Under the pieces are notes generated by a model. It was not told the DNA's origin, did not search any database, and saw only the letters and a program-made list of their open reading frames with translations. Shown in pieces: positions 1,630 to 27,900 of a stretch of 32,000 nt of DNA. Within the stretch, counting starts at the first letter, position 1; each line of letters opens with the position of its first letter. The position numbers and the translations under genes are program-made. The DNA lies in the NCBI RefSeq assembly GCF_000016745.1, contig NC_009483.1:3600001-3632000 (forward strand), in the 5' to 3' direction. Source of the DNA: Geotalea uraniireducens Rf4 (lineage in GTDB: Bacteria > Desulfobacterota > Desulfuromonadia > Geobacterales > Geobacteraceae).

Positions 1630-1663
1630 AAAGCTTATAAGTAACTGATTTTAGAAATAAAAT

Positions 1664-5368: not shown

Positions 5369-5369
5369 G

Positions 5370-7650: not shown

Positions 7651-8332
7651 GGTGTCACATAAGTGAACAATGCCTCTGTTTTGCTGTCTGATCCGCGCAT
7701 AACATTCCTCAACAATAGCAGTGAGTTACGCGCGGCAATATATCATAAAATAGCTGTTTTATCTATTTGAATTTCAACAACCTGCTTGGGCGAAGCAACG
7801 GAGAAAGAACTGGGGATTGCCATATAACCCGAGAAGGACGCAGCGGAATCTGAAGAGTGGCAATCCAGGGAGCGTATGCGATTCTCGGGAGCAAGAGCGC
7901 CGAAAGCAGCTTGCTGCGGCAGTTGCATGAACGTGTATCAAGGCAGAGAGGAAAAGAAGTGCTCTGGTAGGGTTAGTCAGGAGGATGCTGCAGGTCTATT
8001 TTTTTTACGTGATCCGCGCAGATCTGAGTATCAACTCCTTCACAATATCAGCGAGAATTATGAAAAACAAAGAGCCTGAGAAAGCATGAATCTGCAGGAG
8101 GCAACGATTAGCCCTCATATTTTCATTGGTTACAAAACTGGCTTGGAGAATGGGCGTGCTAACAGCATCAGTAAGGTGGGCCGCTTTGAGCGTGAGATCC
8201 GAATGGTATGGCGGGGTCCCTTATATGACGATGAATCCTAATGGCTGAATGATAGATAATGAAAATATGAAGAAACAAGAAGAGTGTTTATAAACTGTGT
8301 GCTTGGCATAAGCACCATTCATTGGAGGTAAT

Positions 8333-9676
8333 ATGAAAATTTTGTTAGTTCAACCCAGAGCTCATAAGATACCGAAAGGGCAAGGTGCCAGGTTTAACAT
8401 TCCGCCGTGGTCCCTCTGCGCTATCGCTGGGCTGACTCCTGAGAAGCACGAGATCGAGATAATCGACGAATTACATGATGACATCAATTTTGACGAGAAA
8501 AACCTGGGGTTAGTTGGAATAACCGCAGCCACCGCTGCCGTAAAACGTGGCTATGAGATAGCTGATGAATTTCGCAAAAGAGGCGTAAAAGTCGTAATGG
8601 GTGGGATACATGTTACAGCAATGCCTGAGGAGGCCCTGGAACATTGTGATGCCGTTGCAATCGGTGAAGCAGAACTGATCTGGGAAAAGATCCTGGAAGA
8701 CGCAGAAAACAATTGTCTGAAACCGACCTACAAAGCAGATGTGTATTTCGATATGAAAAACATGAAAAAGCCAAGATTTGACCTGATAAATCATCGGGAA
8801 AGATATCTATGCTACCAGTTTGTGCAGACAACCCGGGGTTGTCCGTTCAACTGTGAATTTTGCTCGGCAACAAAGTTTTGGGGAAATAAATACAGGTATC
8901 GCCCTATCGATGAAGTGATTGAAGAACTAAAGACCTTTGATAGAACGCAGAGGGTATTCATTGTCGATGACCACATTGGAGCAAATCCTGCGCACGCGAA
9001 AGAATTATTCGACAAACTAACCCCGCTTAAAATGAGCTGGGCCAGTCAAACAGGCGTAAAAACTGCTCTCAGAGAAGGCTTTTTGAAACATGCTGCTGAA
9101 AGTGGATGCAAGCATTTGTTTATCGGTTTTGAATCAATCAACGAAGAGAGCTTGAAAAACTCCAACAAGAAGCAGAATGACCCCAAGGAATTTAAGAAGA
9201 TTGTTGAAGAAGCTCATAAGTACGGAATTCTGATTCAAGGAGCTTTTGTCATCGGCTTGGATGACGACAAAGCTGATATTTTCAAAAGATTGCACCGCTT
9301 TGTGGAGGAGATGAAATTCGATCATATTCAATTCAACGTCCCGTATCCCTATCCCGGGACTGCACTACAAGAGCGCCTTATCAAAGAAAACAGAATAACT
9401 AGCTTTGATTACGACAATTACGTATATGACGGGATCAATTTCATTCCTAAGAACATGACTCAAGAAGAGTTACACAAAGGCTACAGGTGGCTTTACCAGA
9501 AAAACTCCTCGATATGGATTTTATTTAAGAGGAGCATGAGAAAGGTGTTACGAGGTCAGTTCCTTCTGGCCATTTTAGCTCTTTTCATCAATCTCGGAAC
9601 CAGACGCGGATATCTGTTCATGAAAAAATGCGGCAATGAATACAACCCGATTAAGTATCCTGACACAACTGCCTAA
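8333..9676 (+). CDS. B12-binding-domain radical SAM protein (class B rSAM)
   Basis: GGAGG lies 5 nt before the ATG. The N-terminal cobalamin-binding-like Rossmann region is KILLVQP...LVGITAATAAVKRGYEIADEFRKRGVKVVMGGIHVT. The radical SAM cluster motif is CPFNCEFC (codons 8840-8863). GC is about 40% by hand count. Confidence 0.9.
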   Translation: MKILLVQPRAHKIPKGQGARFNIPPWSLCAIAGLTPEKHEIEIIDELHDDINFDEKNLGLVGITAATAAVKRGYEIADEFRKRGVKVVMGGIHVTAMPEEALEHCDAVAIGEAELIWEKILEDAENNCLKPTYKADVYFDMKNMKKPRFDLINHRERYLCYQFVQTTRGCPFNCEFCSATKFWGNKYRYRPIDEVIEELKTFDRTQRVFIVDDHIGANPAHAKELFDKLTPLKMSWASQTGVKTALREGFLKHAAESGCKHLFIGFESINEESLKNSNKKQNDPKEFKKIVEEAHKYGILIQGAFVIGLDDDKADIFKRLHRFVEEMKFDHIQFNVPYPYPGTALQERLIKENRITSFDYDNYVYDGINFIPKNMTQEELHKGYRWLYQKNSSIWILFKRSMRKVLRGQFLLAILALFINLGTRRGYLFMKKCGNEYNPIKYPDTTA

Positions 9677-9928
9677 CAAGGCACCGGTCTCAATCGACGA
9701 CCATGAAGGATCACCCACCCGGCAGGCATCGAGGGCAGGTGTTTTTTTCGAGAGAGAAGCGACGGGCGGCATAGAAACATACGAAGGGATGCACTGAAGG
9801 GCTTTCACGCATATGCAACTGCCAGGCTGGATGACTAACCGAGCGCGATTACTCGCACTCCAGGGAAGGGGCAGCATATTAACGATCAGTCACAGGGTCG
9901 TATATTAGGCTGGTTTTGAGGTGGTTTA

Positions 9929-11215
9929 ATGCATCGACTGCTTTTGTTGTGCCTTGGGGTTCTTGTTCTTCCTGGGGTGACCCTAGCACTTACGCTGGAT
10001 GAAGGACTGAAAATAGTGGCTGAGATGGGACGTGATGTCAAGATCGCCCGCGCCTACGAAGACGCGGCCCAAGGAGGTGTACGGCTTTCTCGTTCAGCAT
10101 TACTTCCCCGAATAGACGCGTATGTAAACCAGACCTGGCTCAGACACCAGCCCCAGGCAAGAATATCCTTTGCGGGAAGCACGGTTACTGCCGCCAACGC
10201 TAACAAGGATTTCCTATCCTATGGCGTTATCGCCACACAGATTTTATATGACTTCGGGAAAACCTCCTCATCCATCAGTGCGGCAAAGTACGCTCTTAAG
10301 GCAAAGGAGATCGAGACTCAGCGTGCCCGAAACCGGTCAGCGTTGGACTTCACCATCGTATATTACGACCTGTTGGAGGCGGAAAAGCTTCTGCAGGTGG
10401 CACACGAGGACGTGCAGCGCTATGCGGCGCACAAAAAAGACGCCGATGCGCGCTTCGGCAGAGGAGTTGTCACGCGGAACGAGGCCTTGAAGCCGACGTC
10501 AAGATGGCTGATGCGCGCCAGCGGTACCTGATTGCGGACAATCGTCGGTCCTTCCGCGCGTCGTGTCTGAACAGCTTGCTTCTGCGGCCCCTAAACGATG
10601 CTGTACAGCCCGTAGAGGTCGCTAAGACCCCTTCGGCAGGCATCACTCTCGAACAAGCATGGACAACGGCAGAGACAGAGAGCCCCGAAATCAGGGTGAT
10701 CGATGCGGAGATCCAGGAGCAAGTAGAAAATTTAAAGTCTATACGTGCCGAGTATCTCCCGGACCTGTTTCTTCAGGGAGGATATCAGCACCAGGATAAT
10801 TCGTACGTTGTGCACGAGGACAACTGGTCGATGATCGCAGGCCTGACGTCAACCTTTCCTCCGGCGGGGCTACCAGCGCAAAAATGGCCACGGGAAAGGC
10901 AGAGCTTTCAGCTTTGCAGCTCACCAGGGAGCAGGTCGTTGACGCAGTGCGGCTTGACGTCAAAAACGCCCACCAAGACCTGCAAAGCTTTGCGCAGCGG
11001 ATCGAGGTCATGAAAACCTCGGTTGGTCAAGCAGAGGAAAACCTGCGTCTCCAGCGGCTGCGCTACCAGGAGGGCGTGGGAACAGCCATTGAGGTCCTAC
11101 GTTGCTATCAACCGCGCAGACCGACTGGTGGCGGGCACAATACGACTTCGAACGGGCCGAGGCCGGATTGTTATATGCCATGGGCAAAGAGTTCAGGAGA
11201 ATGTACAAAAGCTGA
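9929..11215 (+). pseudogene. TolC-like outer membrane efflux protein, disrupted by three frameshifts
   Basis: There is a signal peptide, MHRLLLLCLGVLVLPGVTLA. TolC-family sequence continues across four frames: ...ARFGRGVVTRNEAL / LEADVKMADARQRYLIADN...NWSMIAGL / VNLSSGGATSAKMATGKAELSALQLTREQ...GVGTAIEVL / TLLSTAQTDWWRAQYDFERAEAGLLYAMGKEFRRMYKS (stop 11213-11215). The shifts are near 10485, 10845 and 11097. Confidence 0.75.
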
Positions 11216-11297
11216 AACCAGCTCAAGCTCGATCTCAAATTGATTCCAAGCTATTGAAATGAGCCATGGGTACCCATTTCTTAGGAGAAGTTAGAAA

Positions 11298-12302
11298 ATG
11301 GCAGAAGAGCAGAACGGAAATAGTCGGAAAAAGAAGAAAGCTTTCGCGATAGTCAGTGTCATTGTGGTCATTTGCCTGATCGCAACCTATTTCTATTCGT
11401 CATACCGCAAGACGCATATCTCCACCGACGACGCCTTTATTGATGGCAACATCCATACGATCGCCGCGAAGATTAACGGCACCGTGAAGTCGGTCAATGT
11501 CACGGACAACCAGCCGGTAAAAAAAGGCAGTCTCCTGATAGAACTCGATCCCGTAGATTATTCCGTGCGACTTCAGGAAGCAGCGTCCGCCGTGGGTGCG
11601 GAACGGGCCAAGTTCTCCGAGGCCGACACGAGGATTTCGGCGGCTAAAGCTACCCTTGATCTGCAGCGGGCTAACTTTAAGTTTGCAGAAATCGAAAAGA
11701 ACCGTGCGGAGAACCTGTACCAAAAAGAGGTCTACTCACGCGTCCAATACGAACGCGCCATGACTGCGTATGAGGTTACCGCGGCCCAAGTAAAAGGAGC
11801 GGAAGAACAGCTCAGGAACACGGAATCGCAGAAGTTGACCCAATCGTTCACCATCGACGAAAAAAAAGCCACCGCCGCAATGGCCGCGCTCAATTACAAT
11901 TACACGAAAATTTACGCGCCGGTGGACGGGTACGTCACCAAAAAATCCGTGCAGCTCGGCAACCAGATCCAGGCGGGTCAGCCGCTCATGGCGATGGTGG
12001 GGTCGAACGAAATCTGGCTGACCGCCAATTTCAAGGAAACCCAGATTGAATATATCCGCCCGGGCCAGACTGTTGAATTCTCGGTGGACTCGTATCCCGG
12101 TAGAAAGTTCAAGGGAAAAGTCGACAGCATCATGCCAGGAACCGGTGTGACTTTTTCGGCCTTCCCCGCGGAAAACGCAACAGGGAATTACGTGAAGGTC
12201 GTACAGCGTATCCCGGTAAAGATCGTCGTCACGGAAGGCATGGACAAAAAACACGTGCTGCGGATCGGCATGTCCGCGGAGCCCACGGTACTGGCAAAAT
12301 GA
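11298..12302 (+). CDS. HlyD/EmrA-family membrane fusion protein
   Basis: AGGAGAAG SD. It has one N-terminal TM helix (FAIVSVIVVICLIATYFY), then TDDAFIDGNIHTIAAKINGTVKSVNVTDNQPVKKGSLLIELDP (lipoyl-like), a coiled coil, and YTKIYAPVDGYVTKKSVQLGNQIQAGQPLMAMV. This is typical of EmrA-like proteins. Confidence 0.9.
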   Translation: MAEEQNGNSRKKKKAFAIVSVIVVICLIATYFYSSYRKTHISTDDAFIDGNIHTIAAKINGTVKSVNVTDNQPVKKGSLLIELDPVDYSVRLQEAASAVGAERAKFSEADTRISAAKATLDLQRANFKFAEIEKNRAENLYQKEVYSRVQYERAMTAYEVTAAQVKGAEEQLRNTESQKLTQSFTIDEKKATAAMAALNYNYTKIYAPVDGYVTKKSVQLGNQIQAGQPLMAMVGSNEIWLTANFKETQIEYIRPGQTVEFSVDSYPGRKFKGKVDSIMPGTGVTFSAFPAENATGNYVKVVQRIPVKIVVTEGMDKKHVLRIGMSAEPTVLAK

Positions 12303-13819
12303 ATCCATGGCTTGTTGCACTGACCGTGATGATTCCCTGCCTGATCGAGATCATCGACACCTCGATCGTGAATGTGTCGCTCGGCCACATTCGAGGATCG
12401 CTCTCGGCGAGTTTTGATGAATCCACCTGGGCCATTACCGCCTATCTCGTGTCGAATGCCATAGTGATTCCCATGGCAGCCTGGCTCTCCCGGCTCATCG
12501 GTAGAAAAAACTATCTCCTCAGCTCCATCGTATTGTTCACCTTTAGCTCATTCATGTGTGGCTCGGCCTGGAGCCTGCAGAGCCTGGTATTCTTCCGGAT
12601 CGTCCAGGGCATCGGCGGCGGCGGGCTCATTCCGCTCTCCCAGTCCATCCTGCTGGAGAGTTTCCCGCGTGAAAAGCACGGCACAGCAATGGCCATCTTC
12701 GGCATGGGAGCCATGCTGGGCCCCATCGTGGGCCCCTTGCTCGGCGGGTGGATTACCGACACCTGGTCCTGGCGCTGGATATTCTATATCAACATCCCCA
12801 TCGGCATCCTTTCCATTATCCTGAATATCGTTGTGATCCATGATCCGCCTTACATGAAGCGGCAGAAAATGAAGATCGATTATTGGGGACTCATTTTTCT
12901 TTCAGTGGGACTCGGGTCGCTCCAGCTCATTCTTGACAAAGGAGAGCGGGAGGACTGGTTTGCTTCCGATCTGATACTGACGTTCGGCGTTATTGCAGTG
13001 GTGGCACTTGTTCTGCTGGTGATCAACGAATACTACGCGGACCGCCCGATCGTGAATCTGAAATTACTTAGGGACCGGACATTCACCAGTGGGTGCATGG
13101 TACTATTCTTTGTATTTTTGAACCTTTTCGGGGGGATAGTGCTGCTGCCCATCTTCCTGCAAATGCTGATGGGTTACACGTCAATGGACGCGGGCCTGGT
13201 GCTCGGCCCGGGCGGAATCGCCTCCATGATCGCCATGCCGATAACAGGCAAACTCGTGAGTGTAGTCGATCCAAAGCGCATCCTTGCCGTGGGCGTGTCC
13301 GTCTGCGCTCTTAGCACCTATATGATGTCGCAGTTCAACCTCGCCACGGATTTTTGGACCTTTGTCTTGCCCCGGGTGGCCAGCGGTTTGGGAATGGGAC
13401 TCACGTTTATTCCGCTCACGACCATGACGCTGTCTCATATACCGCGTGAAGACATGACCGAAGCAACTTCCCTGTACAACCTGATCCGCAACCTGGGCGC
13501 CAGCGTGGGCATTGCGCTGTCGGCAACCATAGTCTCACGCCAGGCACAATTGCATCAGAATCGGCTTGCGAGTCACTTGTCTCCGTTTGATTCCAGATAC
13601 ACCTCTTACCATGACAGTATTGCAAAATTTTTGGGCGTGCAGGGAATATCACCTGCTGGCGCTGATGGTGTGATCTACCGGGAACTAGTCCGGCAATCTA
13701 CGGCGCAGGGGTTCAACGATGCATTTCTGATAATGAGTTTGCTAACCCTGTGCATTCTTCCGTTCGTATTTCTCATGCGGCGCACTGATGCACCCACTGG
13801 ACCGCCATCAGTGCACTGA
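12299..13819 (+). CDS. MFS transporter, DHA2 (EmrB/QacA) family, 14-TM type
   Basis: ATGA overlap with the upstream gene. Typical motifs are LDTSIVNV-like (IIDTSIVNVSLGHI), GRKNYLLSSIVLFTFSSFMCG and RIVQGIGGGGLIP. The length of 506 aa fits the family. Confidence 0.9.
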   Translation: MNPWLVALTVMIPCLIEIIDTSIVNVSLGHIRGSLSASFDESTWAITAYLVSNAIVIPMAAWLSRLIGRKNYLLSSIVLFTFSSFMCGSAWSLQSLVFFRIVQGIGGGGLIPLSQSILLESFPREKHGTAMAIFGMGAMLGPIVGPLLGGWITDTWSWRWIFYINIPIGILSIILNIVVIHDPPYMKRQKMKIDYWGLIFLSVGLGSLQLILDKGEREDWFASDLILTFGVIAVVALVLLVINEYYADRPIVNLKLLRDRTFTSGCMVLFFVFLNLFGGIVLLPIFLQMLMGYTSMDAGLVLGPGGIASMIAMPITGKLVSVVDPKRILAVGVSVCALSTYMMSQFNLATDFWTFVLPRVASGLGMGLTFIPLTTMTLSHIPREDMTEATSLYNLIRNLGASVGIALSATIVSRQAQLHQNRLASHLSPFDSRYTSYHDSIAKFLGVQGISPAGADGVIYRELVRQSTAQGFNDAFLIMSLLTLCILPFVFLMRRTDAPTGPPSVH

Positions 13820-13914
13820 CGCAGACTAAAATGCAGGATGATCAGACATGGCTCCGCCGAGGTAATCATCCGGCACTTTAGCACCGTCTTCGAACAGCGG
13901 CAGAATGTGGGCGG

Positions 13915-15147
13915 TCAACCATTGACAGGTGTCACTTCTCTTAAATCGAAATACCCATTATAGCCTTTCATATAAACTGCGGCGCGATGACCGAATAGCA
14001 GAATTGCTTCGGTTTTGGTTTCCAACTCAATATCATAAATATCCGAGGTAACCCTTTTCCCCACCGAATAGGTTTGGTTCCAGCGCTCAACGAGTTCTTG
14101 ACCATTAAGTGAGGGGTTTTTGAGTGCTGTTGTCTTTTCAGCGTCGCAATCTGGTATAGAAATTTTGGCAGCTGTTTCTCTGATGGGCATCGGTTCTTCG
14201 CTAATATCTGCGGCTTTAACGATTGGATTGGAATTCTCGACTTTATCAGCGCCTGATTCGACTTTTTGTTCAGGTAGTTCCTTAGAGCTTTCCCTAGCGG
14301 AGGCCCAATCTCTCTTAATAGAGACGACTAACTTGGTGAGAACGTCTCCTACACCTACTTCCAAAAATTCCATATCACCTTGTTCTAACAAATACATAAC
14401 ACTGTCATTCCATCTAACGCTGCTAGTGATCTGGCGAGTCAGGTTTTGGACGACTGCTTTTGAGTCGTATGGCGTCGCTGTCACATTGGATATTACTGGG
14501 ATTTGCGGCTCTAAAAGGGTAAAGCTGTCAACGTATTCTTTAAATTCCTTCTCAGCTTGTTCCATATAACGGGAATGAAAGGCTCCATTGGTGTTAAGTG
14601 GAATAAACATGATTTTTGCTTTTTCAAAAAACTGTTGAGAGTTATTGATATCTTCCTTCAATCCGGAAATGACAATTTGAGCTGAACTGTTAAGGTTTGC
14701 GATATCGATGGTGGACAGATTCGCATCTTGCAAAATCTTGAGAATTTCATTTTCCGTAGAGTTTATAATAGCGGCCATCCCACCATTTCTGGCTTGCCCC
14801 ATCAACTCCCCTCTTTTCTTAACAAGTCTGACACCATCTTCAAAACTAAATACTCCAGCAGCCTGGAGCGCGTTATACTCACCTAAACTATGTCCGGTTA
14901 AAAAATCCGGCTTTTCACCAGTATCTTGTGTCTTTCCTACATATGACAATGCATTCACAATATACATTGCAGGTTGCGTATACTCGGTCTTATTCAGCTT
15001 ATGTTCCGGATCGTTCAGACAAAGATCCTTGATCGAATATCCCAATATGCTATCCGCCATATTGGTCATAGCCGGGAAACGATCAAAAAGACCCTCACCC
15101 ATTCCTTTTCGTTGGGAGCCTTGACCTGGGAACATGTACGTCTTCAT
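13915..15147 (-). CDS. Free-standing (trans-acting) acyltransferase, malonyl-CoA:ACP transacylase type, with C-terminal extension
   Basis: GGAGGA lies 5 nt before the ATG at 15145-15147 (the track start at 15159 is less likely). Motifs are FPGQGSQ, GHSLGE (Ser codon 14887-14889) and GAFHS (malonyl-type). The core ends near ...GDVLTKLVVSIKRD, followed by about 130 extra residues. Confidence 0.9.
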   Translation of the reverse strand: MKTYMFPGQGSQRKGMGEGLFDRFPAMTNMADSILGYSIKDLCLNDPEHKLNKTEYTQPAMYIVNALSYVGKTQDTGEKPDFLTGHSLGEYNALQAAGVFSFEDGVRLVKKRGELMGQARNGGMAAIINSTENEILKILQDANLSTIDIANLNSSAQIVISGLKEDINNSQQFFEKAKIMFIPLNTNGAFHSRYMEQAEKEFKEYVDSFTLLEPQIPVISNVTATPYDSKAVVQNLTRQITSSVRWNDSVMYLLEQGDMEFLEVGVGDVLTKLVVSIKRDWASARESSKELPEQKVESGADKVENSNPIVKAADISEEPMPIRETAAKISIPDCDAEKTTALKNPSLNGQELVERWNQTYSVGKRVTSDIYDIELETKTEAILLFGHRAAVYMKGYNGYFDLREVTPVNG

Positions 15148-15182
15148 ATTTTCCTCCATAATATAGAGTTACTTTTATAAAA

Positions 15183-18100
15183 TCAGGGCATTACCATCCA
15201 GTGACTCTCTTGGGCAAAGGGATATGACGGCAAGCTTATTCTCCGTGGCTTTTTGCCTTCGTACAGCTTGTTCCAGTCTATGACAGAGCCCTTAACCCAG
15301 AGGGCTGCCAGCTTTTCATAATTCCTACTACTCATCCACTTATGGACTGCTTCCTGCTCTTTTCCGTCGGCCGGCGTTGCTGATGGCATCTTGCTATGCT
15401 TTTTGGCTTGCCCAAAGAATATCCGGGCATTGTTATTTTCTCTGTTTAAATAGCAGGTGAGTTTCTCGATCGCCTCTTTATTCGTTTTTGCTGTGAATCC
15501 TAGCCTGCTTTTCATGGCCTCACGTCCTACCTGCAACGTATAGGCAACCTGCATTAGCCTTTCATCTCCAAACGTCTCTCCTTCGAGCCACTCTATCAAA
15601 TCCTTCACACGCTCGTTCAGCCTTTCCGCATTCTGCGCCGATACCACAAATATCGCCGGCGTACCCTCGCTCACATTGCACGAGTCGTCATCTTTGCCGA
15701 CAAACTCTGCTACAACAACATGCGCGTTCGACCCACCAGCTCCAAACGATGAAACTCCCGCGATTCTCGGAGCATCGCTTTTCCACTCAGTCAATTCCCT
15801 TTGCACGACAAAAGGGGTGTTCTCGAAATCAATATGAGGGTTCAAATTTTCCGCGAAGAGGCTTGGAACGATTTTGCCGTGTTTCATTTGCAATAATACT
15901 TTGGTCAAGGCTGCGATTCCGATCGCGCATTCGCAATGACCAATGTTTGAGTTTACGGATCCTATCGCACAAAATTGTTTGTCATCTGTGTGATGTTGAA
16001 ACGCTTTGGTCAATCCTGATATTTCAACCGGGTCGCCAAGAGGTGTCCCTGTCCCGTTGGCCTCGATATAGCTAATGGATCTTGCATTTACACCCGACCG
16101 TTCTATTGCCTCCCGAATGACTTGACCCTGGGACACGGGATTCGGCGCCATGAACGCATTCGTCCTGCCACCGTTATTGATCATACTGCCCTTGATAATT
16201 CCATATATGTTGTCGCCGTCATTGATAGCCTGAGCTAAAGGTTTAAGCAGAACCGCTCCGACCCCTTCACCTGTAACAAACCCATCTGCTTCTGCTCCAA
16301 AGGCACTGCAGCGATCTGTAGCTGAAAGGACACCCAGGGCTGAGAGTATCGTATAGTGATTGGGCGACAAAATCAGATTGACACCGCCTGCGATAGCGCG
16401 ATCGCAGGCACCGCTATGGAGGCTGTCGAGCGCCAAATGGACCGCTGTCAGTGAGGAGGAACTGGCGCTATTGACAACCATACTCGGACCTTGGAAATTA
16501 TAGGTGTACGAAACTCTATTTGCGATTACAAAGGGATGACTGCCCTTGAAATAGTCTGCGTTCATTACACCAACAAAGACCCCGATTTTTCGACTATCAC
16601 AGATGGTGTCCGGCGTGTAACCCGCATTTTCAATACAGCTATAGGTTTCCTGTAAAAACAGCCTCTCCTGAGGATCCATGATCTGTGCTTCACGGGGTGA
16701 TATATTGAAAAATTGATGATCGAATTTGTCTATATCTTCTAAAAATCCACCCCACTTGCTGTACATCTTTCCTGCTTTCCCTTTCTCCTTGTCAAAATAT
16801 TCCCTCCAATTCCAACGCTCCTGCGGTATCTCGGTTATGTTGGATTTACCTTCTTTCAGATTATTCCAGAATTCGTTTATATGGCTGGCACCAGGGTACC
16901 GAACGGATACCCCGATAATCGCTATATCAGCTGGTCCTTTTTTCTTCTCAATGTTTCCATTCAAGACTGGATCTAGGTTTTTCAACTGCACAGAAGATCC
17001 TACTTTCTGCAGTGTTGCGTTTAGTATCTTGGCTATCATCTCACCTGTTTCAGTCACTACTATCGCATCGAACGATATGTAATCCGATTTTTCAACGCGG
17101 ATTTTTTTAATGACATACGCTATCTCTGTAGTCGGTCTGTAGACCGTAATGCTGTCGATCGATAAGGGCACTTTAATTTCAGGATCAACGGTAACCGGAT
17201 CGGCCATGAGATAGCAACTATTTAACAAGAGGGGATCGAATACGAGGTTCTCACTGTTTCCCCTCTTCTGACTACCTGCCATAGTAATCTTTGCAACCAA
17301 TGTGACCTTGTCATACGCATACAAAGCTTCTATTGTCTTCAGCGTTTTTTCAATTTTTATGTCATGAATCATCTTGTATATTTTTTCGATGGTTCCTGGC
17401 GCAAACATTTTAGATTGGCTAACAATGGATTGAATCTCCAATCTCTCAGGGATGCTGTCAACCGTTCCAATAAAATCTCCCGCACAGTTCCTTTCTTTAT
17501 TACTTGTACCGAAAAGAGTTTCAAAACCGTTTACCCCTTTGGACTTCACTTCAACTTCAACGGTTTCATTTTTATTCAATCCTACAGGTCCGCCGTAAAA
17601 ACGGATATTTCTGAGGCCCAGCGGGTATCCTTCAGGATTGTTTTTCAAATAAGTTTCTATAGCAAGGCAGGGGTAAGTCACTCCCATGATCGCTGGGCGT
17701 GCATACACCTGGTGGTCCTGCAAAAAAGGTTCACTACCATAAAATTCATATTTATCCGAAGGAATTGTGAGCGTTCCGCTTTCAGTACTCCAGTTTTGAC
17801 TTTTCGTCCCACCTTCAGCCAGTTTTTTCTCCAGATAACCGGCCAAGGCAATGAAGTTACTATATTCAAACAACAGGCTGGGACTTAGCGACAGTTCAAA
17901 TTGTTCCTCTATATCTTTGACCAATTCCAAAAGCTGAGAAGATTCCATGCCCAATTCTAAGAAGCCCAGATTCTCAAGCTGATCCATGTTTGTATTTACA
18001 TATTTCGCGAAAATCTTCTTCAGCGGTTCCTCTACAGAGGGAAGGCTGGCATGCCTTACGTTTCCTCCGTCTTCATGGACTGGGGAACTGATGTTGTCAT

Positions 18101-18971
18101 CCCTTTCCGCCTGTTCCGCCTTTACCCGTTCAGGGTCTATTTGGCTCGGGTCTTTCACAAGTTTGATAGTCAGCCCGCTCAGTTTTGCGGTAAGATGGCC
18201 TCCCGTGTCAAAGAAGTCCATATCTACGGTAGTAATATCATTCACTGTGCGAATCGAGGATCTTTCGATTCTCACGTAACAACGGTCCAACAATGGTCCT
18301 TTACTGTAAAAAGTCTCATAAGATAAGGGGAGATATAGATCAGCTATACTGTCAGGCATCCCCTCTCTAATCAATATCATGGATGACATAGCCGCACCAT
18401 CCATTAAAGCGGGGTGAAACAGATAATTCTGTGCCGTATCTTGGTTCGCTAGATTTGCGTTTACATCTATTAAGCAGCCGCTATCAGTTATATAAACATT
18501 GCCTGTAGCCTTTATCATCCCCTGATGGACTAATCCGGCCTTGCGCGCTTCGGAATATGTTGTCTCCATGTCATAGGTTTTGGTAGAAAGCTGCTTCACA
18601 GCTTCTACGTCAATTACCTCTTCGAGGAAATCCACTTTCTTCTGCAATTCCGCCGTCACATATAGCATCCCTGCCTGCGATTCTTTGTGGATGTCGGTCT
18701 CCACACCTGCAACACTAATCTTCCAGTTTCTTTGCTTTCTTTCGAAAGTAATTTTCACGCGGACCGGTTTTTCTTTGCTCACCACCAGTGGTTTGTATAT
18801 GGCTAACCTTTTCAAGCAGTGATCATCACTACTTAGGTTTAACCCGTCTTTCGCCAATTGATACAACATATCAATGTATGCCAACCCTGGTAATACAGAG
18901 TGACCATATACCTGGTGGCTCTTCACTATCGGGTTATCTAAGGTCAACTGGAAGTTAAATATTTTTTTCAT
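15183..18971 (-). CDS. trans-AT polyketide synthase, DH-ACP-DH*-KS(Ser/Asn variant)-flanking subdomain
   Basis: The start ATG at 18969-18971 (MKKIFNFQLTL...) is preceded by GGGGAGAG and overlaps the upstream PKS gene by 17 nt. There is no AT domain. Domain motifs are listed under the sub-features. The stop is at 15183-15185. Confidence 0.9.
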   Translation of the reverse strand: MKKIFNFQLTLDNPIVKSHQVYGHSVLPGLAYIDMLYQLAKDGLNLSSDDHCLKRLAIYKPLVVSKEKPVRVKITFERKQRNWKISVAGVETDIHKESQAGMLYVTAELQKKVDFLEEVIDVEAVKQLSTKTYDMETTYSEARKAGLVHQGMIKATGNVYITDSGCLIDVNANLANQDTAQNYLFHPALMDGAAMSSMILIREGMPDSIADLYLPLSYETFYSKGPLLDRCYVRIERSSIRTVNDITTVDMDFFDTGGHLTAKLSGLTIKLVKDPSQIDPERVKAEQAERDDNISSPVHEDGGNVRHASLPSVEEPLKKIFAKYVNTNMDQLENLGFLELGMESSQLLELVKDIEEQFELSLSPSLLFEYSNFIALAGYLEKKLAEGGTKSQNWSTESGTLTIPSDKYEFYGSEPFLQDHQVYARPAIMGVTYPCLAIETYLKNNPEGYPLGLRNIRFYGGPVGLNKNETVEVEVKSKGVNGFETLFGTSNKERNCAGDFIGTVDSIPERLEIQSIVSQSKMFAPGTIEKIYKMIHDIKIEKTLKTIEALYAYDKVTLVAKITMAGSQKRGNSENLVFDPLLLNSCYLMADPVTVDPEIKVPLSIDSITVYRPTTEIAYVIKKIRVEKSDYISFDAIVVTETGEMIAKILNATLQKVGSSVQLKNLDPVLNGNIEKKKGPADIAIIGVSVRYPGASHINEFWNNLKEGKSNITEIPQERWNWREYFDKEKGKAGKMYSKWGGFLEDIDKFDHQFFNISPREAQIMDPQERLFLQETYSCIENAGYTPDTICDSRKIGVFVGVMNADYFKGSHPFVIANRVSYTYNFQGPSMVVNSASSSSLTAVHLALDSLHSGACDRAIAGGVNLILSPNHYTILSALGVLSATDRCSAFGAEADGFVTGEGVGAVLLKPLAQAINDGDNIYGIIKGSMINNGGRTNAFMAPNPVSQGQVIREAIERSGVNARSISYIEANGTGTPLGDPVEISGLTKAFQHHTDDKQFCAIGSVNSNIGHCECAIGIAALTKVLLQMKHGKIVPSLFAENLNPHIDFENTPFVVQRELTEWKSDAPRIAGVSSFGAGGSNAHVVVAEFVGKDDDSCNVSEGTPAIFVVSAQNAERLNERVKDLIEWLEGETFGDERLMQVAYTLQVGREAMKSRLGFTAKTNKEAIEKLTCYLNRENNNARIFFGQAKKHSKMPSATPADGKEQEAVHKWMSSRNYEKLAALWVKGSVIDWNKLYEGKKPRRISLPSYPFAQESHWMVMP
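15702..16931 (-). other. PKS domain: degenerate ketosynthase (Cys replaced by Ser and first His by Asn), followed by a flanking subdomain at 15186-15701
   Basis: ADIAIIGVSVRYP. SMVVNSASSSSLTA aligns with SMAVDTMCSSSLTA, giving Ser codon AGT at 16461-16463 in place of Cys. YIEANGTGT has Asn codon 16056-16058. NSNIGHCECA is retained. The flank ends SLPSYPFAQESHWMVMP-stop. Confidence 0.85.
16977..17765 (-). other. PKS domain: DH-like variant DH* (candidate enoyl-isomerase or pyran-synthase type)
   Basis: HQVYARPAIM keeps the His (codon 17712-17714), but Gly is replaced by Ala and Pro by Met relative to HxxxGxxxxP. The second motif reads FDPLLLNSCYL, with Asn (codon 17220-17222) where DH-a and DH1/2 have the catalytic Asp. 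Confidence 0.65.
17817..18041 (-). other. PKS domain: ACP4
   Basis: LGFLELGMESSQLLELV. Ser codon at 17940-17942 (GMES instead of the usual GxDS). Confidence 0.75.
18147..18971 (-). other. PKS domain: dehydratase DH-a at the N-terminus of the second PKS protein (approximate)
   Basis: HQVYGHSVLP matches HxxxGxxxxP (His codon 18915-18917). FHPALMDGAAM has the Asp present, with the usual Q/H position occupied by Met. Confidence 0.75.
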
Positions 18972-21900
18972 CAAACTCTCCCCAGACGTTTTTAACCGAA
19001 GACTGCACAGCTTCAAGATTTATCATCTGATTATCGATCGACTTAAACCTGTCAATGAAATCGTCTATACTGTCTTCGTTAGTCGACTTCACCAGTGAGT
19101 CTTGCTGAAACGTGACAGTTCGTGATGATGCAAAGCTACGTTTATTCATTGCCGGAGCTGCCAGAGAGAACAGCCGCTGGGTATAGTTCACTTCCGGAAC
19201 AAATTCTTCCATGATCACATGGCAGTTTGTACCTCCATCGGGGAATGAATTCTGAGCAGCAATGCGCTTACGCCCCGACTCTATTAGCCAGTCGGAACAT
19301 TCCCGATTGAAAGCTATACGGGACGCGGTGAAATCGTAATGCTCAAACGGCTCCAGCGCCGATAAAAACGGCGGTATCTTCTTCTCTTCAAGGCTGAGCA
19401 TGCACCGTATGAATCCGGCCAACCCTGAAGTCAGCAGAAGGTGTCCTATATTGGGCTTTATAGATCCCACTACGCATGACTTCATTTTTTTGTCATCCAA
19501 CCGGTATATTTCCGACAGCGCTCTGATTTCTATTGAATCTACCACAGGTGAGCCGCCGCCATTGACCTCGATATAACCTATGTCTTCCGGCGTCTTCCCG
19601 CTAAGCTCCAGGGCCTCTTTCATTACCTGCTTTTGAGTCTCCATGTTAGGCGAACCAGGACCCAATGTCCTTCCATCGTTGTTCACCGCTATCGCCTTGA
19701 TGACTCCATAAATCTTATTCCCGTCCCTTACTGCATCGCTTAACCTCTTCAATACGACTACGCCTGCTCCTTCTCCCAGTACTTCTCCACCTGCTTGCTT
19801 CTCAAATATTTTGAAATCTCCGTTTTTGCTCAGTATTTTTCTGGCCTCAAACAGTCGATGGGTAAATGGATTCAATATCAGGTTTACCGCACCCGCCATT
19901 GCCATATCTATCCGTCCGTTTTTCAAGGTATCCGATGCCATCGATATTGCCGTTAATCCTGACGAACACGCGGTGTCTACCACCAGGCTCGGACCGGTTA
20001 TATTTAGAAACCGAGAAATGTTGGTCGCTAGATAGTTCTGTCCCAGCCCCAATATCGGATTAGTGGCCTCCAGAACCTTTTCGATGTCCTGAGTTATCTG
20101 GGCACGCCCTCCTAGGTAAACTCCGACCCTTTGCCCGGAGACGTCCTTACTTTCATATCCAGCGTCATAAATCGCCTTCAGACCCTCTTCCAGTACCACC
20201 CTGGCTTGCGGATCCATGATCATCGCATCGTTTTCCTTCAGCTTAAAGAACTCCGGATCAAACATATCGATGTCATCGATCCAACCGCCATAATCCCTCC
20301 TGCCATTGCTTTCCCACCGGTTTTCCGGCACCTCACGGATCGCCTTCTCCCCCTTTGCCAGCAATTCCCAATAGGCCTCTTTGGTTGGTGAATCAGGGAA
20401 CCGGCAGGATATCCCGACGACCGCAATATCTTCCGGCGCCGTGACTATTTCATTGCGAGCAATTGGCTCATTTCCGCCAAGCCCCTCAAACGCCGGCTCT
20501 TTCATCTGAGCAGTGCTGTCTTCGCTAAGTGCAGCTTCCGCGGGAGTGCTCGCTGCGAGGTCAGCCTGGAACTGATCTGCGTGATGAGCACTGAAGTAAT
20601 CCGTCAAGGCTGCCAGGGTGGTATGCTCGAAAAGCAAGGCAGGATCCAATTTGCCCTGCACTCCTTTTTCGAGTGTCTGCACCAATTGGGCGAACATGAT
20701 CGAATCGATACCGTAGTCGTCAAAGGACGTGTCTTCATCCAGTTGATCTGCCGTCAGCTTCAATTCCGTCATGAATGTGTTTCGCAGCCACTGACGGACG
20801 GACTCCTTTACACCTGCTGTCAACCGGTGCGCTGGAGGCAATTGGGGCGCAGCAGAAACAGCGCGCGCGGGTTGCAGGTCAACCTTCAGCGTCGTTTTCA
20901 ACAACTGATCATGTCTGAATTCGTGAGGAATGACGACACAGGGCAAGGACACCCTGTAGGAACCATTTTTAATAACATCCAAGAGCATTAAGCCGTTTGC
21001 GGTTGAAACAAGGGCAAGGCCTGTCTTCTTATACGCCGGGGTTTGCTGTCCGTTTGCCGCCATGCCTGTTTCGCCCCAGGCAGGCCACTGAATCGACTTC
21101 ACATAGGCATGGCCGTGGCTGGCTTGATACTCGGCGAAATAGTCCATATAGGCATTGGCCATGGCATAGTCGCTTTGACTTGTGGATAAGGTAGGGGCGA
21201 CGCTTGATATGGACGAAAACAATATGAAAAACGCCAACGGCTCGGTTTCTACTACCTTGTGCAGGGTGGCAAGGCCGGTCATCTTGGGCTCGCACACCGA
21301 CTCGATCTCCGAGTAGGTTTTGTTGAAAAACACAGGTTTTTTGCCGGTGACACCCGCGCAGTGGAATATACCGGTGAGGGGGCCGGCATGCCGATGGATG
21401 TCGTCCACCATATCCCGTAACCCGTCCTGGTCCGTGAGTGGCGTGGTGTAATAGCGGACTCGCACTCCCTGCTCGACGAAGGATTGCATGCGCCGGAGTT
21501 TTTCAGACATTTCCGGCATGTCGTTCCGTTCAAGCACCGTTTTCCACTCGGATTGTTCCGGCAATGCTTCCCGGCCCAGAATGGCGAGGTTCCGGCAGCC
21601 CTGCGAAACGAGATGCTCAGCAATCGACGCACCTATCCCGCGCGATCCGCCGGTGATGAGAATGACGTCCACGGACCGATAGCGCTCCGTTTCTGGATAG
21701 TTCTTCTCAATGTCTACATCGGTCTGACCTATCCTTAATTGGGGTTCGTACCGCCTGTCGTTTCGATAACAACTCTCGGAAACATGCTCCTGGCAGGTAT
21801 TGGCAAATTCGTTTTTGATCTGCGCCGCCAGTTTCTCCTTCATTGCCAGCGGGCAATCACTATCCATCGTGAGAGAAAGGATTTGCTTGTACTCTGAGCC

Positions 21901-24900
21901 TAACATGCGGTACAGCCCGGCCAGACGAGCGCCTTGCAGGGTCGTCGTTGCTAGGTGAAAAGCGTGCAATGCATGTGTGACCTGTAAGAGCGTAAATCTT
22001 TCGCTCCGATCATACTCGATCAGCTTTTGCAGAAATGCTATTTTCCCGGACTCGACCGCAACAGATCGTTCATACTCGCTGTCATATGCGGTAAGGTCGA
22101 TTACGCCGAGCAGCTTCCGGTTAAGTCTCCGCTCCCTGATCTGGTGATACAGATCCTCCCCTGCCGAAGCCGAATAAAAATCAGTGGGTATCGCGTCGCT
22201 CGACGACAATGCGTCGTGAACAACATGGATTGCCCGAATGTCGGTTCTCTGGCTGAAGAGCTCGGCTGCAAGCTCCGCTGTTGCCGCGGTTCCCAAGACG
22301 ATTATCAGGCCGGAGGGAATATCCGACGCTGCGCCCGCATTCTTTTGCTGCCAGTCTTTAATCAGGATTACTCTTTCCCTTTGGCTGTCGGAGACCACAG
22401 CAGGGGCGACCCCTGCCACGGATGACTGGGCCATTTCCGGCACCCAATACCGTTCGCCGGCAAAAGGATAGGTGGGAAGGCCGATCCTGCGAGGCTTGGC
22501 AGCACCGTACAACCTGTTCCAGTCAAAATGCATCCCCTTGACCCAAAGCTCCAGAAGTCGTGCGTATTTTCCTTTGCTGACCCAGGCGTCGATCGTTTTT
22601 GCCATGTCCTCATCGACGGCGTAAAGCCATGCACTATCGTTGTCACGTTTAACGTTGCCCTTATAGAGGTCTTCGATGTCATTCGTGCCGTCCAGGAAGC
22701 CACTCAGTTTCTCTTCCAGCTCCTTGATCGACGCGACCACCAATGCCAACCGTGCATCCATGGCTTCTCGGCCGACCTGCAGCGTGTACGCCGCATCTGC
22801 CAGATCGGCATCGCTGAATTGCCGTTCCTGGATCGCCCCCAGCAATCGCCGCGCCTGCTCCTCAAGCCGCTTTTCATTCTTCGCCGACAATACGACGATC
22901 GCCGGATGCTGTGCGCTGACCCGGACCGGGATCCGCTCCCCTCCCTCAGGGATGTATTCTTCGATTACCACGTGAGCGTTGGAGCCCCCGGCCCCAAAGG
23001 ATGAAATACCGGCGATCCGCGGATATTCCCTGGTCTGGCCGTTAATCTCGACGACCGGACGCTTCCATTCGGCAAGTTGCTGTTGAACCACGAAAGGCGT
23101 GGTACTGAAATCTATGTTCGGGTTCAGCACTTCGGAATGTAGCGACGGAGCTAACTGGCGGTGCTTGAGCTGAAGCAGCACCTTCGTCACCCCAGCGATG
23201 CCCGCCGCGCTCTCGCAGTGCCCGATGTTGGACTTTGCCGAGCCGATGGAGCAGAACTGTTTTTCCTTGGTGTGTTCCTGGAAGGTCTTGGCCAAGCCCG
23301 CGATCTCTATCGGGTCTCCCAATGAGGTCCCCGTGCCGTGGGCTTCTATGTAGCTGATGGTCCGGGGATGTACCCCGGATTGCTGCAACGCCCGCCCGAT
23401 GACGCTTGCTTGCGCATTCGGGTTAGGGACCGTGTAACCGTTGGTCTTTCCGCCGTGATTAATCGTGGACGCCTTGATGACCCCGTAAATCTGATCTCCG
23501 TCGGCAACGGCTTTCGCCAGAGGTTTGAGCAGCACCGCTCCCACGCCTTCTCCTGGGACATAACCATCTCCGCCCTCGCCAAAACTCTCGCACCGCCCTT
23601 TGCTCGATACAAACTTGCCTTGGCCGAGAAACATGTACTTATTGGGATGGACCGAGACGTTCACCCCACCGGCGATCGCCACCTCGCAGCCGCCCCGTTG
23701 CAGGCTTTGACAAGCCAGATGGATGGCGGTCAGCGATGAAGAACACATGGTGTCCACTGCCATGCTGGGTCCATGGAAATTACAAAAATACGATACGCGG
23801 TTGGCTATCGACGAGGGGGAACCGGAAAGGGCGAGCGGCCTGCCCAAGGCTGTTTCCTGGGCCCCGTAGAGTTGGTACTCCTCGTACATTACGCCGACAT
23901 AGACGCCCACGTTACCGTCGAGGCCAGTCCCCAGAACTTCTCGCGTGTATCCTGCATTCTCCAGGGTTTCATACACGCACTGTAAGAATAGTCGCTCCTG
24001 CGGATCCAATATCTCGGCTTCACGCGGCGTGATATTGAAGAAAAGCGTGTCAAAGCGATCCACTCCATCCAGGAACCCTCCCCACTTGCTGTAGGTCTTT
24101 CCCTTCTTGTTCTTATCGGCGTCGAAGTACAGACTATGGTCCCAGCGCTCTTTGGGAATCTCGGTGATGCAATCCTTGCCGTCCCGGAGATTCTTCCAGA
24201 ACTCCCCGATATTTTCCGCGCCCGGATAGCGCCCGGAAACACCGATGATGGCAATATCTGACTCCTCGTTGGCTTTTTCCTCCTGCGATTCAGCGCGGCA
24301 GGCGAACCGCGCCTGCCTGCGGTTAAGGGCGGCCGTCTGCACGGATTTGGGCGCGGCAACGGAATTTTGGGAGGAATCGGCAGCAGTTGTGGGTTTCTGC
24401 TCTATTTCCAGCAATCCCATCAATTGATCACGGTGCGATTCAAGAAAGTACCCGGACAATGCCTGGATGGTCTGGTACTCGAAAAAGAGGGTTTTGGGCA
24501 ATGAACCGAATGCTTTTTCCAGCTGATTGGTCAATTGCATTACCATGATCGAGTCAATTCCGTACTTTTCCATCGGAGCATTGGCGTCGATCTTACTGGC
24601 AGGGTACTTGATGACGGAAGAGATCAGCTTCTTGAGATAGTCGGTGGCCTTTTCCTGAAGCAGATCCTGTGCAACTGCCGGAACTGTTTTTCCCTCCTCT
24701 GCGGCACAGCTTAACGTCGAGGTCTCGGTAGCGTCCTGTCGGTCCAAAAGCACGGCACGGAGTCGCTCGACATCCCCTTCCAGCGGCATGACCTGATCCC
24801 TGCCGCAGGCCAGGCACTGATACAAGGCCCTGATACCCGTCTGCGTCTGCAAGGAGATCATCCCCGTGCGTTGCAGCGACATGCTCTCGGTTTTCGCATC

Positions 24901-27900
24901 GATCCGCATGCCTCCCTCTTGCCAGAGCGGCCAATTGATCGAAAAGGTTCTGCCCAGGCGTTCGTTTCTGGCCACCAGGCCGTTGCGATATGCTGCATAG
25001 GCATCCATGAAGGCGTTCGCCGCAGCGTAGTCGGCCTGACCGATATTGCCGAGAAGTCCAGCTCCGGAGGAAAACAGTATGAAGAGATCCTGGTTTAGAT
25101 GCTTCGTTTCCTGATCCAGGTTCACCAGCCCCATGACTTTGGGTGCGAGGACTTCTAAGAGCTCTTCCTGTGTCTTTTTTATGATGAAGTTGTCACGGAC
25201 GACCCCGGCCGCATGGATAATGCCGGTGAGCGTCCCGAACTCCTTCATGATGTTTTGGATCAATTCGGCAACGGCTTCGCGCCGGGTGACATCGACCTCT
25301 TTATAGACGATCCTCGCGCCCGCTCCTTCCAGTTCCTTTAACCGGGATCGTCTCTCGTCGTTGAGGGAGGACCTACCGGTAAGAACGAGGGTCACGCTCC
25401 TGACCTTATGCGCGATCTCTCCGGCGAAAATCATTCCCAGTCCTCCGGCTCCGCCGGTAATAAGGTAAACGCCGCCTTCCTTCCAGGGAATGTTTTCTTC
25501 TGCGCCCGGTACTTCCAGTTCGCTCAGCCCGGCAACAAACCTTTTGCCATCACGATAGCGAATATGAGTAGCCAAGGGATCGTGGCTGTTCTGGTTCAGT
25601 TTCTCTACGATCGATTCCGAGGTTTCCCGTGCTTCCACTTCTATCAACTGCCCGATGAGCCTCGGATTCTCCATGCGGGCGGATTTGAGGAGGCCCAGGA
25701 GGCCCGTGAACAGAAGGCCTTCGGGGTCGGCAGGCAATACGACTTGGACCAGCACGCTCCCCCGGTGCTTTTCTCTCAGAATCCCTTGGAGTTCTGCGAA
25801 CAGCCGGGCTGCATGGTCCGTGAAGCGCTCCTCTATGCCTTTTTGCTCCGATTGCAGGGCAACGCAGCGTGTCCCGCTCATCTGGCTTGTGACGGCTTCC
25901 GGAATACCGTTTTCCAGCCCGCACAACAGCACCAGATGTGTCGCCAGATCGGGCGCCGTGGCTATTTCAGCAAGAGCCTGCTCGTTCCAGACCGGCTCAA
26001 GCATCAGGGTTCCTATGCTTGCAGAGGCGCCTACTGAAGGGACCTCTCCCTCCAGGCTGCGCAACGATAGCCCCTTGATCACAACCTGCACGTTGCCGTG
26101 TTCGTCGCATACCGTGATATCTATTTTTTGCACCGCATCGCCTGGCTTGCTCCCGTTGCCGTATCGAATCAATGCCCACATCGAGGAGCTGCACCTGCCG
26201 AGGATTTCCAGTTCCTGCAAGGCAAAGGGCAGGATCGGCTTGGACGGAGCGCTGCCAGAAGCTGCCTGGCTGCCGAATGAGTCCATGAGGCCAGCGCATG
26301 CCTGGAACGCGGAATCCATGATGCTGGGATGCAGAACGAACTGATCTACCGTTTGGCAGACTGAGGAAGGCAGGGACAGCTTGGCAAGCGCCTGGTTGGC
26401 ACCGACAAAGATGTGCTCAATGCCGCGATGTCCGCTGCCATACTCGATCCCCATGGCCCTGAATCCACCATAGCATTGGGCGGGCGTCAGGGTCCCTAGG
26501 TTACACGCGGCCCGTAAGGCGCTAATATCCAACGTTGATTTCCCCGAGGAAGGCAGAAGCTTTGCCTGCCCCTGGCTATGTACCACAGTGCCTGCCTCAG
26601 GTGACTCGCTGTAAACCTCATAGCCAATCTCCCCGTTGTCTTCAGGGAAAAGACCGATATGCACCTGAACCGGCCGGTCATTGACGATGATCGGTCTTGC
26701 CCACACGACATGTTTGAGGGAGATCCCCGTCAAAGCCTGCTTCAGGCCCCCCGCAGCCCGGTCCACCGCGGCCCGCGCCATCTCCAGATACGCCACCCCT
26801 GGGAACACCCTCTCGCCCCTGACTACGTGGTCGGAAAGGAAGAATTCCTGCCCGGTAAAGGTCGAACTGAATCTCTGCTCGGTTAGGTCCGAGGTGTTCT
26901 GATGCAGCAGGGGATGTAAGGCGTTGCCGCTTCCTGGTGCCCCCTGGCCTGCAGCGTCCAACCTCTGTCCTTTGATCTCGGGCAGCCAATAGCGCTCACC
27001 GGCAAAGGGATATGCGGGTAGACTGATCCGGCGAGGGGTGCTGTCGCCGTAGAGCACGTTCCAGTCAACGGGTATTCCCTGAACCCAAAGATCCAGAACT
27101 TTTGAGTATTTTCTTTTCCTGATCCATTTGCCGATAGCTTCCTGCATGTCATCGTCAGCAGTAAACACCGCCAACATATCGTTATCGCGCTTCACCTGAC
27201 CCATGGAGAGGCCTTCGATGTCATCCTTGCCGTTCAGATAATCCTTTAGCTTCTGTTCCAGTTCACTGACCGTTGCAACGATCAAAGCCATCCGCTCTTC
27301 CATTGCTTCCCGGCCGATTTGCAGGGTGTACGCCACATCCGCCAGGTCCGCATCGGTAAAACGCTGAGAGCTTTGCGCACCCAGCAAACGCTCAACGCTG
27401 GCACGCAGCCGCTCACCGTCCCGGGCCGACAGCACAATGAGCGCGGGATGCTGGGCGTTAATGGCAACGCGGGTACGCTCTTCGTCTCCAGGAGCATATT
27501 CCTCGAGTATCACATGGGCATTGGATCCTCCTGCTCCGAAGGAAGAAATCCCCGCTATCCTCGGATACTCACGGGTTTCCCCGTCAATCTCAACAACCGG
27601 ACGTACCCATTCGGACAGCTCTTGCTGAACGGTAAAGGGAGTCTTGGCGAAATCGATGTTCGGGTTCAGGTTCACCGAGTGCAGACTCGGCACGTGGGAG
27701 CGATGTTTCATCTGCAATACGATCTTGGTTACGCCTGCTATGCCTGCTGCTGCTTCCAGATGGCCGATATTGGACTTTACTGATCCAATAGCGCAGTATC
27801 CCGTGTCGGCGGTATCCTTGTGGAAGGCCTGTGCCAGCCCCGTTATCTCTATTGGGTCGCCCAGCTTGGTTCCTGTCCCATGAGCTTCTATATAACTGAC

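Follow-up and report, generated by a model that had tools for sequence, protein, structure and literature searches.

The stretch analysed here (the window), 32,000 nucleotides of Geotalea (Geobacter) uraniireducens Rf4, covers the 3' end of a large trans-acyltransferase (trans-AT) polyketide synthase (PKS) cluster, with a decayed integrase/AbiE island adjoining it. Its giant megasynthase, gene A, an assembly-line enzyme of antibiotic type, ends with a non-elongating ketosynthase, KS0, and is followed by a second PKS gene, gene B. We found that this PKS is a patchwork of high-GC (H) and low-GC (L) blocks joined at the edges of ketosynthase (KS) domains, and that one H-to-L junction falls at or near the beginning of KS0. 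With a probability of about 0.7, we regard this junction as a recombination seam within a conserved bimodule type.

The seam would cut the bimodule KS2-KR-ACP-KS0 // DH-ACP (the double slash marks the end of the protein) between module 1 (KS2-KR-ACP, class H) and module 2 (KS0 // DH-ACP and what follows, class L). Homologous or domain-boundary recombination would have swapped one half of the bimodule, downstream or upstream, for the version of another lineage, belonging to the same module family, with the crossover in the ACP-KS0 linker or the first ~50 codons of KS0. A later exchange with a second KS0 of the same genome, by duplication or gene conversion, may then have produced the present KS0 pair, 82-84% identical from the first codon. 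What we infer from the patterns described below is which way the exchange went, how many events there were, and that the L class arrived after the H class.

Two classes of DNA and the position of the step

Recursive Bernoulli segmentation of raw GC divided the window into the segments 1-7996 (GC 0.508), 7997-9679 (the radical SAM gene, 0.426), 9680-13920 (efflux genes, 0.539), 13921-20294 (the acyltransferase (AT) gene, gene B and KS0, 0.450) and 20295-32000 (0.556, range 0.48-0.60). An earlier reading of this DNA (the original prediction) had described a GC mosaic, and the computed segmentation, the GC content of third codon positions (GC3), codon usage and purine loading all display that pattern far beyond chance. 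Its individual values fared unevenly: the efflux genes are indeed higher in GC (0.53-0.56), but the 37-43% proposed up to about 19.9 kb is too low for the 3' part of gene A (0.476-0.489 at 18,955-19,900), and the 57-58% proposed from 20.3 kb onwards is slightly too high, as 20.3-32 kb averages 0.556 (0.48-0.60). Across the step GC3 decreases from ~0.63 to 0.48-0.53, and GC1 and GC2 drop as well; values for the single genes are given in Table 1.

Relative synonymous codon usage (RSCU) separated the same two classes. The high-GC part of gene A and the efflux genes (HlyD and MFS) correlated with each other at r=0.74-0.87 (that part of gene A with the efflux genes, 0.74-0.84), and gene B, the AT gene and the radical SAM gene correlated with each other at r=0.39-0.50 (radical SAM with AT and B, 0.49-0.50), compared with -0.16 to 0.32 between the classes, KS0 being intermediate. 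The H class, with a GC of ~0.55, comprises the larger share of gene A together with the efflux genes and is resident-like, since its codon usage resembles that of these neighbouring efflux genes. The L class, comprising KS0, gene B, the trans-AT gene and the radical SAM gene, has a GC of 0.42-0.50, a purine-loaded coding strand and a distinct codon usage; in KS0, the GC skew of the coding strand is +0.23 and its purine fraction 0.587, versus 0.53 in the H class.

Within 15,183-32,000, the best single GC change point was 20,099, with a 2-log-likelihood (lnL) support interval of 19,872-20,340. Placing the change at the gene border (~19,000) was ~12 lnL units worse, and this border can thus be ruled out as the site of the step, in agreement with the original prediction, which had placed the step in the N-terminal third of KS0. 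A codon-position-specific four-letter model applied to gene A alone had its optimum at 20,514, on a flat plateau from 19,968 to 20,578, and composition is therefore compatible with a position inside KS0 but unable to separate it from the ACP|KS0 edge. All estimates, including those from phylogeny given below, place the seam somewhere from the ACP-KS0 linker to about the end of the first third of KS0, and their resolution is no finer than that. The higher GC3 of the N-terminal third of KS0 (0.60, compared with 0.52 in the rest), which the paralogous KS0 also displays, was considered as a sign of a junction inside the domain and discarded as evidence, because the same bump occurs in Bacillus and other relatives and the difference is not significant (p=0.18).

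A step of this size is rare among homologues. Calculated as the GC of 5 kb upstream minus that of 5.1 kb downstream, delta GC is 0.096 in the window, as opposed to 0.003 +/- 0.017 (maximum 0.054) at the equivalent site in 36 homologous loci from other, named genomes, which puts the window ~5.5 standard deviations out. In the genome collection scanned for these loci, the species of the window itself was absent or masked, and the best match was 47% identical. A local dip in GC to 0.48-0.51 (GC3 0.51-0.56) also interrupts the high-GC part of gene A at 28200-29250, near ACP1 and where KS1 begins, and was not called as a segment of its own at the segmentation threshold used.

Change of ancestry at the seam and a second bimodule region

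Metagenome contigs 98% identical to the window (L001-L005) carry the same mosaic, and three more distant loci (L007, L006 and L008) contain a collinear KS2-linker-KR-ACP-KS0 followed by a gene B-like sequence, with identities of 47-59% upstream and 49-55% downstream of the step. In the database, some 20 proteins extend over 95-100% of linker-KR-ACP-KS0. As collinear relatives span the junction, the module architecture across it is ancestral, and as both sides share one such family, the event is better described as homologous exchange within a type A split dehydrating bimodule than as the fusion of unrelated loci. In database searches with each segment, most named relatives, for all three PKS segments, belonged to the Bacillota (Methylomusa, Desulfocucumis, Pelosinus, Paenibacillus and Bacillus). 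A different taxon of origin for each half was considered and rejected, the searches having returned the same relatives at similar identity.

The two sides of the step nevertheless differ in their closest relatives. In neighbour-joining (NJ) trees, the upstream linker-KR-ACP (22,650-20,476) was nearest to P0080, P0091, P0083 and P0090, of the Methylomusa/Desulfocucumis type, whereas the corresponding region of L007 was nearest to P0092 and L006. KS0, on the other hand, was the sister of the L007 KS0 in 200/200 bootstrap replicates (N-terminal third 198/200, C-terminal part 200/200), their next neighbours being L006, P0092 and P0095. MaxChi with four alternative parents found breakpoints at 20,313-20,685 (p<=0.001); comparing the first clade with the second, breakpoints fell mostly at 20,277-20,355 within a full range of 20,094-20,889, and most pairs exceeded the permutation maximum. 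The test for recombination breakpoints against homologues, suggested together with the original prediction, was thus significant, with most breakpoints at 20,277-20,685.

Sliding identity to L007 follows the same course, with 0.72-0.80 in KS2, 0.34-0.56 in linker-KR-ACP, 0.81-0.89 in KS0, 0.58-0.70 in DH-ACP and 0.26-0.70 in the remainder of B. At 20,433, which is the first codon of KS0, nucleotide identity leaps from 0.50 to 0.82, and from this codon onwards the two KS0 are 83-88% identical in amino acids and 82-84% in nucleotides; identity at four-fold synonymous sites is ~0.53 in KS0 and ~0.27 upstream of it. These sequence comparisons support a real change of ancestry at the step, beyond a change of composition. 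The proposed recombination between PKS loci of different origin is upheld in so far as ancestry switches (NJ 198-200/200, MaxChi p<=0.001), but its two halves have the same collinear relatives and do not stem from unrelated loci; shared closest relatives on both sides, named beforehand as an argument against the proposal, were in part what we encountered (L007, L006 and L008, at the identities given above).

The L007-type region can be assigned, by its sequence, to the same genome as the window. The 90% cluster of its B-like protein, B', holds ABQ27261.1 and WP_049818939.1, both from Geotalea uraniireducens Rf4, and B' and the proteins of the window share one replicon of 5,136,364 bp; we therefore take this region to be a second dehydrating bimodule region. 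KS0 hence has its nearest partner in a paralogue from the same genome, which indicates a contribution of intra-genomic gene conversion. The paralogous region has GC steps of its own, from 0.595 to 0.462 at L007 6,094 (support 6,056-6,165), on GANAHVVMEE, a form of the NAHVILEE motif, and from 0.462 to 0.578 at 16,978 (6,896-6,945 in L058), in an ACP|KS linker, both of them sharper than that of the window.

The L007-type region probably lies upstream in the same cluster. Gene A enters the window within a post-KS linker, and gene 3 of L007 and L058 exits its contigs within a KS, and the gene orders fit; this terminal KS of L007 shares 85-95% identity with the N-terminal part of KS2 in the window. 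At its end (22059-22199), L007 has 141 nt that are exactly the first 141 nt of L001, from the same k=141 assembly; either the two contigs are truly adjacent in that strain or they share a repeat. From this overlap and the gene order, the region may adjoin the window, although L058 stops before reaching it.

The purine and GC-skew signature of the L class is common to the L block of the window, that of L007, and L006. L006 has a large GC step of its own in its PKS region (16015-25514), from 0.46 to 0.29-0.34, and compositional mosaics may accordingly be common in this PKS family. At the strain level, KS0 has a tract of ~300 nt in its C-terminal half (19225-19530) that is ~12% divergent from L001, L002 and L004, which are otherwise 98-99% identical; the variants of this tract do not derive from the L007 paralogue, 13 matching the window and 16 matching L001, and the tract probably reflects a strain-level recombination of its own. 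A recent conversion from the L007-type KS0 into one of the strains was also considered and dropped, because the strain-variable sites are evenly split (35:38).

Weighing the seam against other explanations and known exchanges

Several points weigh against a recombination seam at this site. The trees are NJ trees on protein distances with 200 bootstrap replicates, not maximum-likelihood trees, and the first ~110 codons of KS0 are without clade signal (~14:13). No donor was found: leaving the paralogue aside, identity to the best relatives is 45-60% on either side of the step, and the named relatives of the two halves belong to the same taxa. The transition resembles a ramp more than a step, KS0 being intermediate (GC 0.495, GC3 ~0.54), and the breakpoint varies by method, with 20,099, 20,294 or 20,514 from composition, 20,277-20,355 and 20,685 from MaxChi, and 20,433 from identity to the paralogue. 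The mean GC of the host is ~54%, and the one gene of the flanking chromosome that could be compared, from a 98% relative, has a GC of 0.62-0.64. Neither a usable statement of the host GC nor an earlier description of the cluster was found in the literature.

We see a small but real chance that the pattern is due purely to gene conversion inside the cluster, the KS0 of the other bimodule, from its low-GC surroundings, having overwritten that of gene A without any foreign DNA at the seam. This would agree with a KS0 pair of 82-84% nucleotide identity exactly from the first codon and raised synonymous identity, with the location of both KS0 on the same 5.14-Mb replicon and with another conversion-like repeat in gene A, and gene conversion is documented in assembly-line PKSs (PMC8256042). 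However, the L class spans 6.4 kb and reaches well past the tract of high identity, with AT and radical SAM also belonging to it, and the second half of gene B is still of class L while only 52-60% identical to B' in nucleotides. Conversion alone also leaves unexplained why the KR-ACP of the window and that of the paralogue fall into differing clades, and the strain-variable sites of KS0 give no preference for the L007 allele (35 vs 38).

Improbable, in our judgement, is a single uptake of the entire cluster from a low-GC donor with uneven amelioration afterwards, in which the repeated DH-KR-ACP-KS modules would have adapted faster, e.g. by GC-biased conversion, and the unique KS0, B, AT and radical SAM lagged behind. 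All parts do have mostly Bacillota-type relatives, the H-class modules are repeated and contain conversion tracts, and integrases adjoin the cluster. Against this stand the steps of the paralogous region, which are sharp (support 50-110 nt) and lie at domain edges, the phylogenetic incongruence at the seam, the existence of paralogues of L-class parts as well (KS0/KS0' and B/B') and the H-class composition of the non-repeated efflux genes. That no historical event is involved, and the GC difference reflects the amino-acid composition of the domains or expression-linked codon choice, is very improbable even though in several genomes the GC3 of KS0 regions slightly exceeds that of the linkers upstream and GC1 and GC2 fall across the step too, considering that 36 homologous loci with the same domain order have no such step, that GC3 and RSCU change strongly and that the unrelated AT and radical SAM proteins carry the L signature.

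As a recombination seam, the junction adds a new and well-marked case to a known process, module exchange in trans-AT PKSs, and is unusual for its position ahead of KS0 and for its compositional scar. Mosaicism of these enzymes by recombination of module blocks was described by Nguyen et al. 2008 (as cited in PMC8256042), Helfrich et al. 2021 (PMC7930024) and Mabesoone et al. 2024 (PMC11260071), and here, too, module series of different ancestry meet at KS borders. The common natural exchange site lies behind the KS, from NAHVILEE to LPTYPFx5W (PMC11260071, PMC7930024). The first step of the paralogous region, on NAHVILEE, and the ends of both the repeat in the window and gene B, at LPTYPFx5W, coincide with it, but the seam of the window (19,968-20,578) is located before or at the start of KS0, not behind a KS. 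KS regions had been named as natural exchange points in the original prediction; this holds for the joining of module blocks at KS borders, whereas the published site is C-terminal to the domain and this seam is on its N-terminal side. With this position, KS0 would move as one with the DH-ACP downstream of it, separate from the KR-ACP upstream. The difference in GC, a delta of ~0.10, sets the window apart from known mosaics; GC content goes unmentioned in the three papers searched.

The type A split dehydrating bimodule, KS-KR-ACP-KS0 // DH-ACP, was described by Luo et al. 2021 (PMC8456789); an A-type KR and formation of a Z double bond are further characters of this type. The order in the window is the same, with a Cys-Asn-His KS0, a split straight after it and a next protein that begins with a DH (HxxxGxxxxP) and an ACP. 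Unlike in that bimodule, the two halves here differ in composition and ancestry, and the second protein goes on with a DH-like domain and a KS devoid of Cys and His.

The KS0 tract also bears comparison with GRINS, genetic repeats whose nucleotide skews are intense, defined as regions of >500 bp that share >80% identity with a different region of the same PKS and have a mean |GC skew| and |TA skew| both >0.15 (2021, PMC8256042). It is 1.24 kb long, is 82-84% identical to a PKS region of the same genome and has a mean GC skew of +0.23. We did not identify it as a GRINS, its skew being one of purines (G>C, A>T) and not a correlated G+T skew and its |TA skew| of 0.12 lying below 0.15. In addition, it sits in a trans-AT PKS of a proteobacterium-type host, where GRINS are rare, its skew is common to the whole L class and to relatives in other genomes, and the two copies lie only probably in one cluster.

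The natural recombination sites of trans-AT PKSs are an open practical question. According to Helfrich et al. (PMC7930024), the exact recombination loci need identifying, and Mabesoone et al. (PMC11260071) were unable to localise a natural site more finely than ~100 residues owing to sequence divergence. In this cluster, the difference of 0.10-0.13 GC between blocks allows seams to be placed to 50-600 nt without close relatives, and canonical (NAHVILEE, LPTYPFx5W) and non-canonical (ACP|KS) seams occur side by side. We put forward only tentatively that the cluster has kept scars of several exchanges at near-nucleotide resolution, including two non-canonical N-terminal-side seams (ACP|KS0 here and ACP|KS in the paralogous region), with inheritance of KS0 together with the downstream DH-ACP and an extra natural fusion site. 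If true, such inheritance would be an exception to the co-evolution of KS domains with upstream domains and would offer an additional fusion site for engineering dehydrating bimodules, and if the ACP|KS0 seam gives a working enzyme, KS0-DH-ACP is suggested as a portable unit. That the terminal KS is dead and an efflux gene frameshifted, as described below, warns that the assembly line may be decaying, and the seam alone is no proof of a functional hybrid.

Domains, gene B and the surroundings of the cluster

Proteins A and B together contain three KS (A) and one KS (B), plus KR, DH, ACP and RhiE-like linkers, and a Pfam scan of both found no Acyl_transf_1; this domain is the sole one of the free-standing 414-aa AT (E=2e-36), as is characteristic of a trans-AT PKS. 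From Pfam and motif positions, the domain order of gene A is post-KS linker-DH-KR-ACP-KS1-DH-KR-ACP-KS2-linker-KR-ACP-KS0. An internal repeat in gene A, ~89% identical overall with one run of ~120 nt at 100%, ends ~30 nt past LPTYPFx5W, and the metagenome contigs break inside gene A because of it. KS0 is recognised by the motifs DTACSS (aa 3992), EVNGGGS (aa 4128) and NIGH (aa 4167), with the Cys kept and the first catalytic His replaced. The predicted order KS-KR-ACP-KS0, end of protein, then DH-ACP in the next protein corresponds to the type A split bimodule; the relatives of gene B all begin at the same residue, and L007 has an identical 17-nt A/B-type overlap.

Table 1. Coordinates and properties of the features of the window
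Feature	Position	Strand	Remarks
Interval holding the H-to-L junction	19968..20578	minus	ACP-KS0 linker and first ~155 KS0 codons
KS0, non-elongating ketosynthase	19194..20433 (or 20,460)	minus	Cys-Asn-His; GC 0.495
Gene A, trans-AT PKS megasynthase	18,955 to beyond 32,000	minus	no in-frame stop before the window end (none upstream of 31,950); whole gene GC 0.547, GC3 0.627
High-GC (H) part of gene A	20434..32000	minus	GC 0.555, GC3 ~0.63, purine 0.534; ends at window edge
Post-KS2 linker, internal repeat copy	22430..22940	minus	other copy 31,480-32,000
C-terminal tail of gene A past KS0	18955..19193	minus	17-nt overlap with gene B start (ATG at 18,971); bimodule split point
Gene B, class L	15183..18971	minus	DH (HQVYGHSVLP)-ACP-second DH-like domain-KS-linker; GC 0.452, GC3 0.485
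LPSYPFAQESHW motif (LPTYPFx5W type)	15198..15233	minus	gene B stop 4 codons on, AT gene 24 nt further
Free-standing acyltransferase (trans-AT), class L	13915..15159	minus	GC 0.422, GC3 0.410
B12-binding radical SAM gene, class L	8333..9676	plus	GC 0.429, GC3 0.475
Efflux genes, class H	segment 9680..13920 (genes 9,929-13,819)	plus	frameshifted outer-membrane efflux protein, HlyD-type adaptor, MFS pump; GC 0.539

The KS of gene B (15850-16930), the last of the assembly line, is predicted to be dead, its catalytic Cys being replaced by Ser (NSASSSS, in 16341-16520) and its first His by Asn (EANGTGT, at ~16064). The KS of the paralogue B' is intact, with DSMCSS and EAHGTGT retained. No ACP or TE follows the terminal motif of gene B, and the relatives of gene B run on past LPTYPFx5W into a DH. 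Since gene B ends at LPTYPFx5W and its KS has lost the Cys and His that B' keeps, the L block looks, at the level of sequence, like a copy that was cut at the canonical exchange site and whose orphan KS has decayed.

The gene for the outer-membrane efflux protein (9929-11243) is broken into three overlapping open reading frames of 200, 169 and 119 aa, and in the 98% relatives L001-L004 it is missing 654 bp (corresponding to 10,269-10,924 of the window), so it is decaying in both lineages. To the left of the cluster, the decayed island (1797-7630) consists of two integrases, AbiEi/AbiEii, an AEP-primase fragment and a DDE transposase fragment; its AbiEii has 212 aa compared with 311 in the 98% relatives and its second integrase 318 aa compared with 418-468. 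No tRNA gene was found at the border of the island or elsewhere in the window. Near the first positions of the window, three c-di-GMP-I-GGC riboswitch aptamers (RF03167) lie on the minus strand at 509-588, 1050-1128 and 1293-1372, with 64-65 bits against a gathering threshold of 59; the trio occupies less than 900 nt in a stretch without an open reading frame of at least 100 aa. In the 98% relative L055, the next gene past the riboswitches encodes a giant CLIPPER/DUF11-repeat surface protein of >2,861 aa, with a GC of 0.62-0.64.

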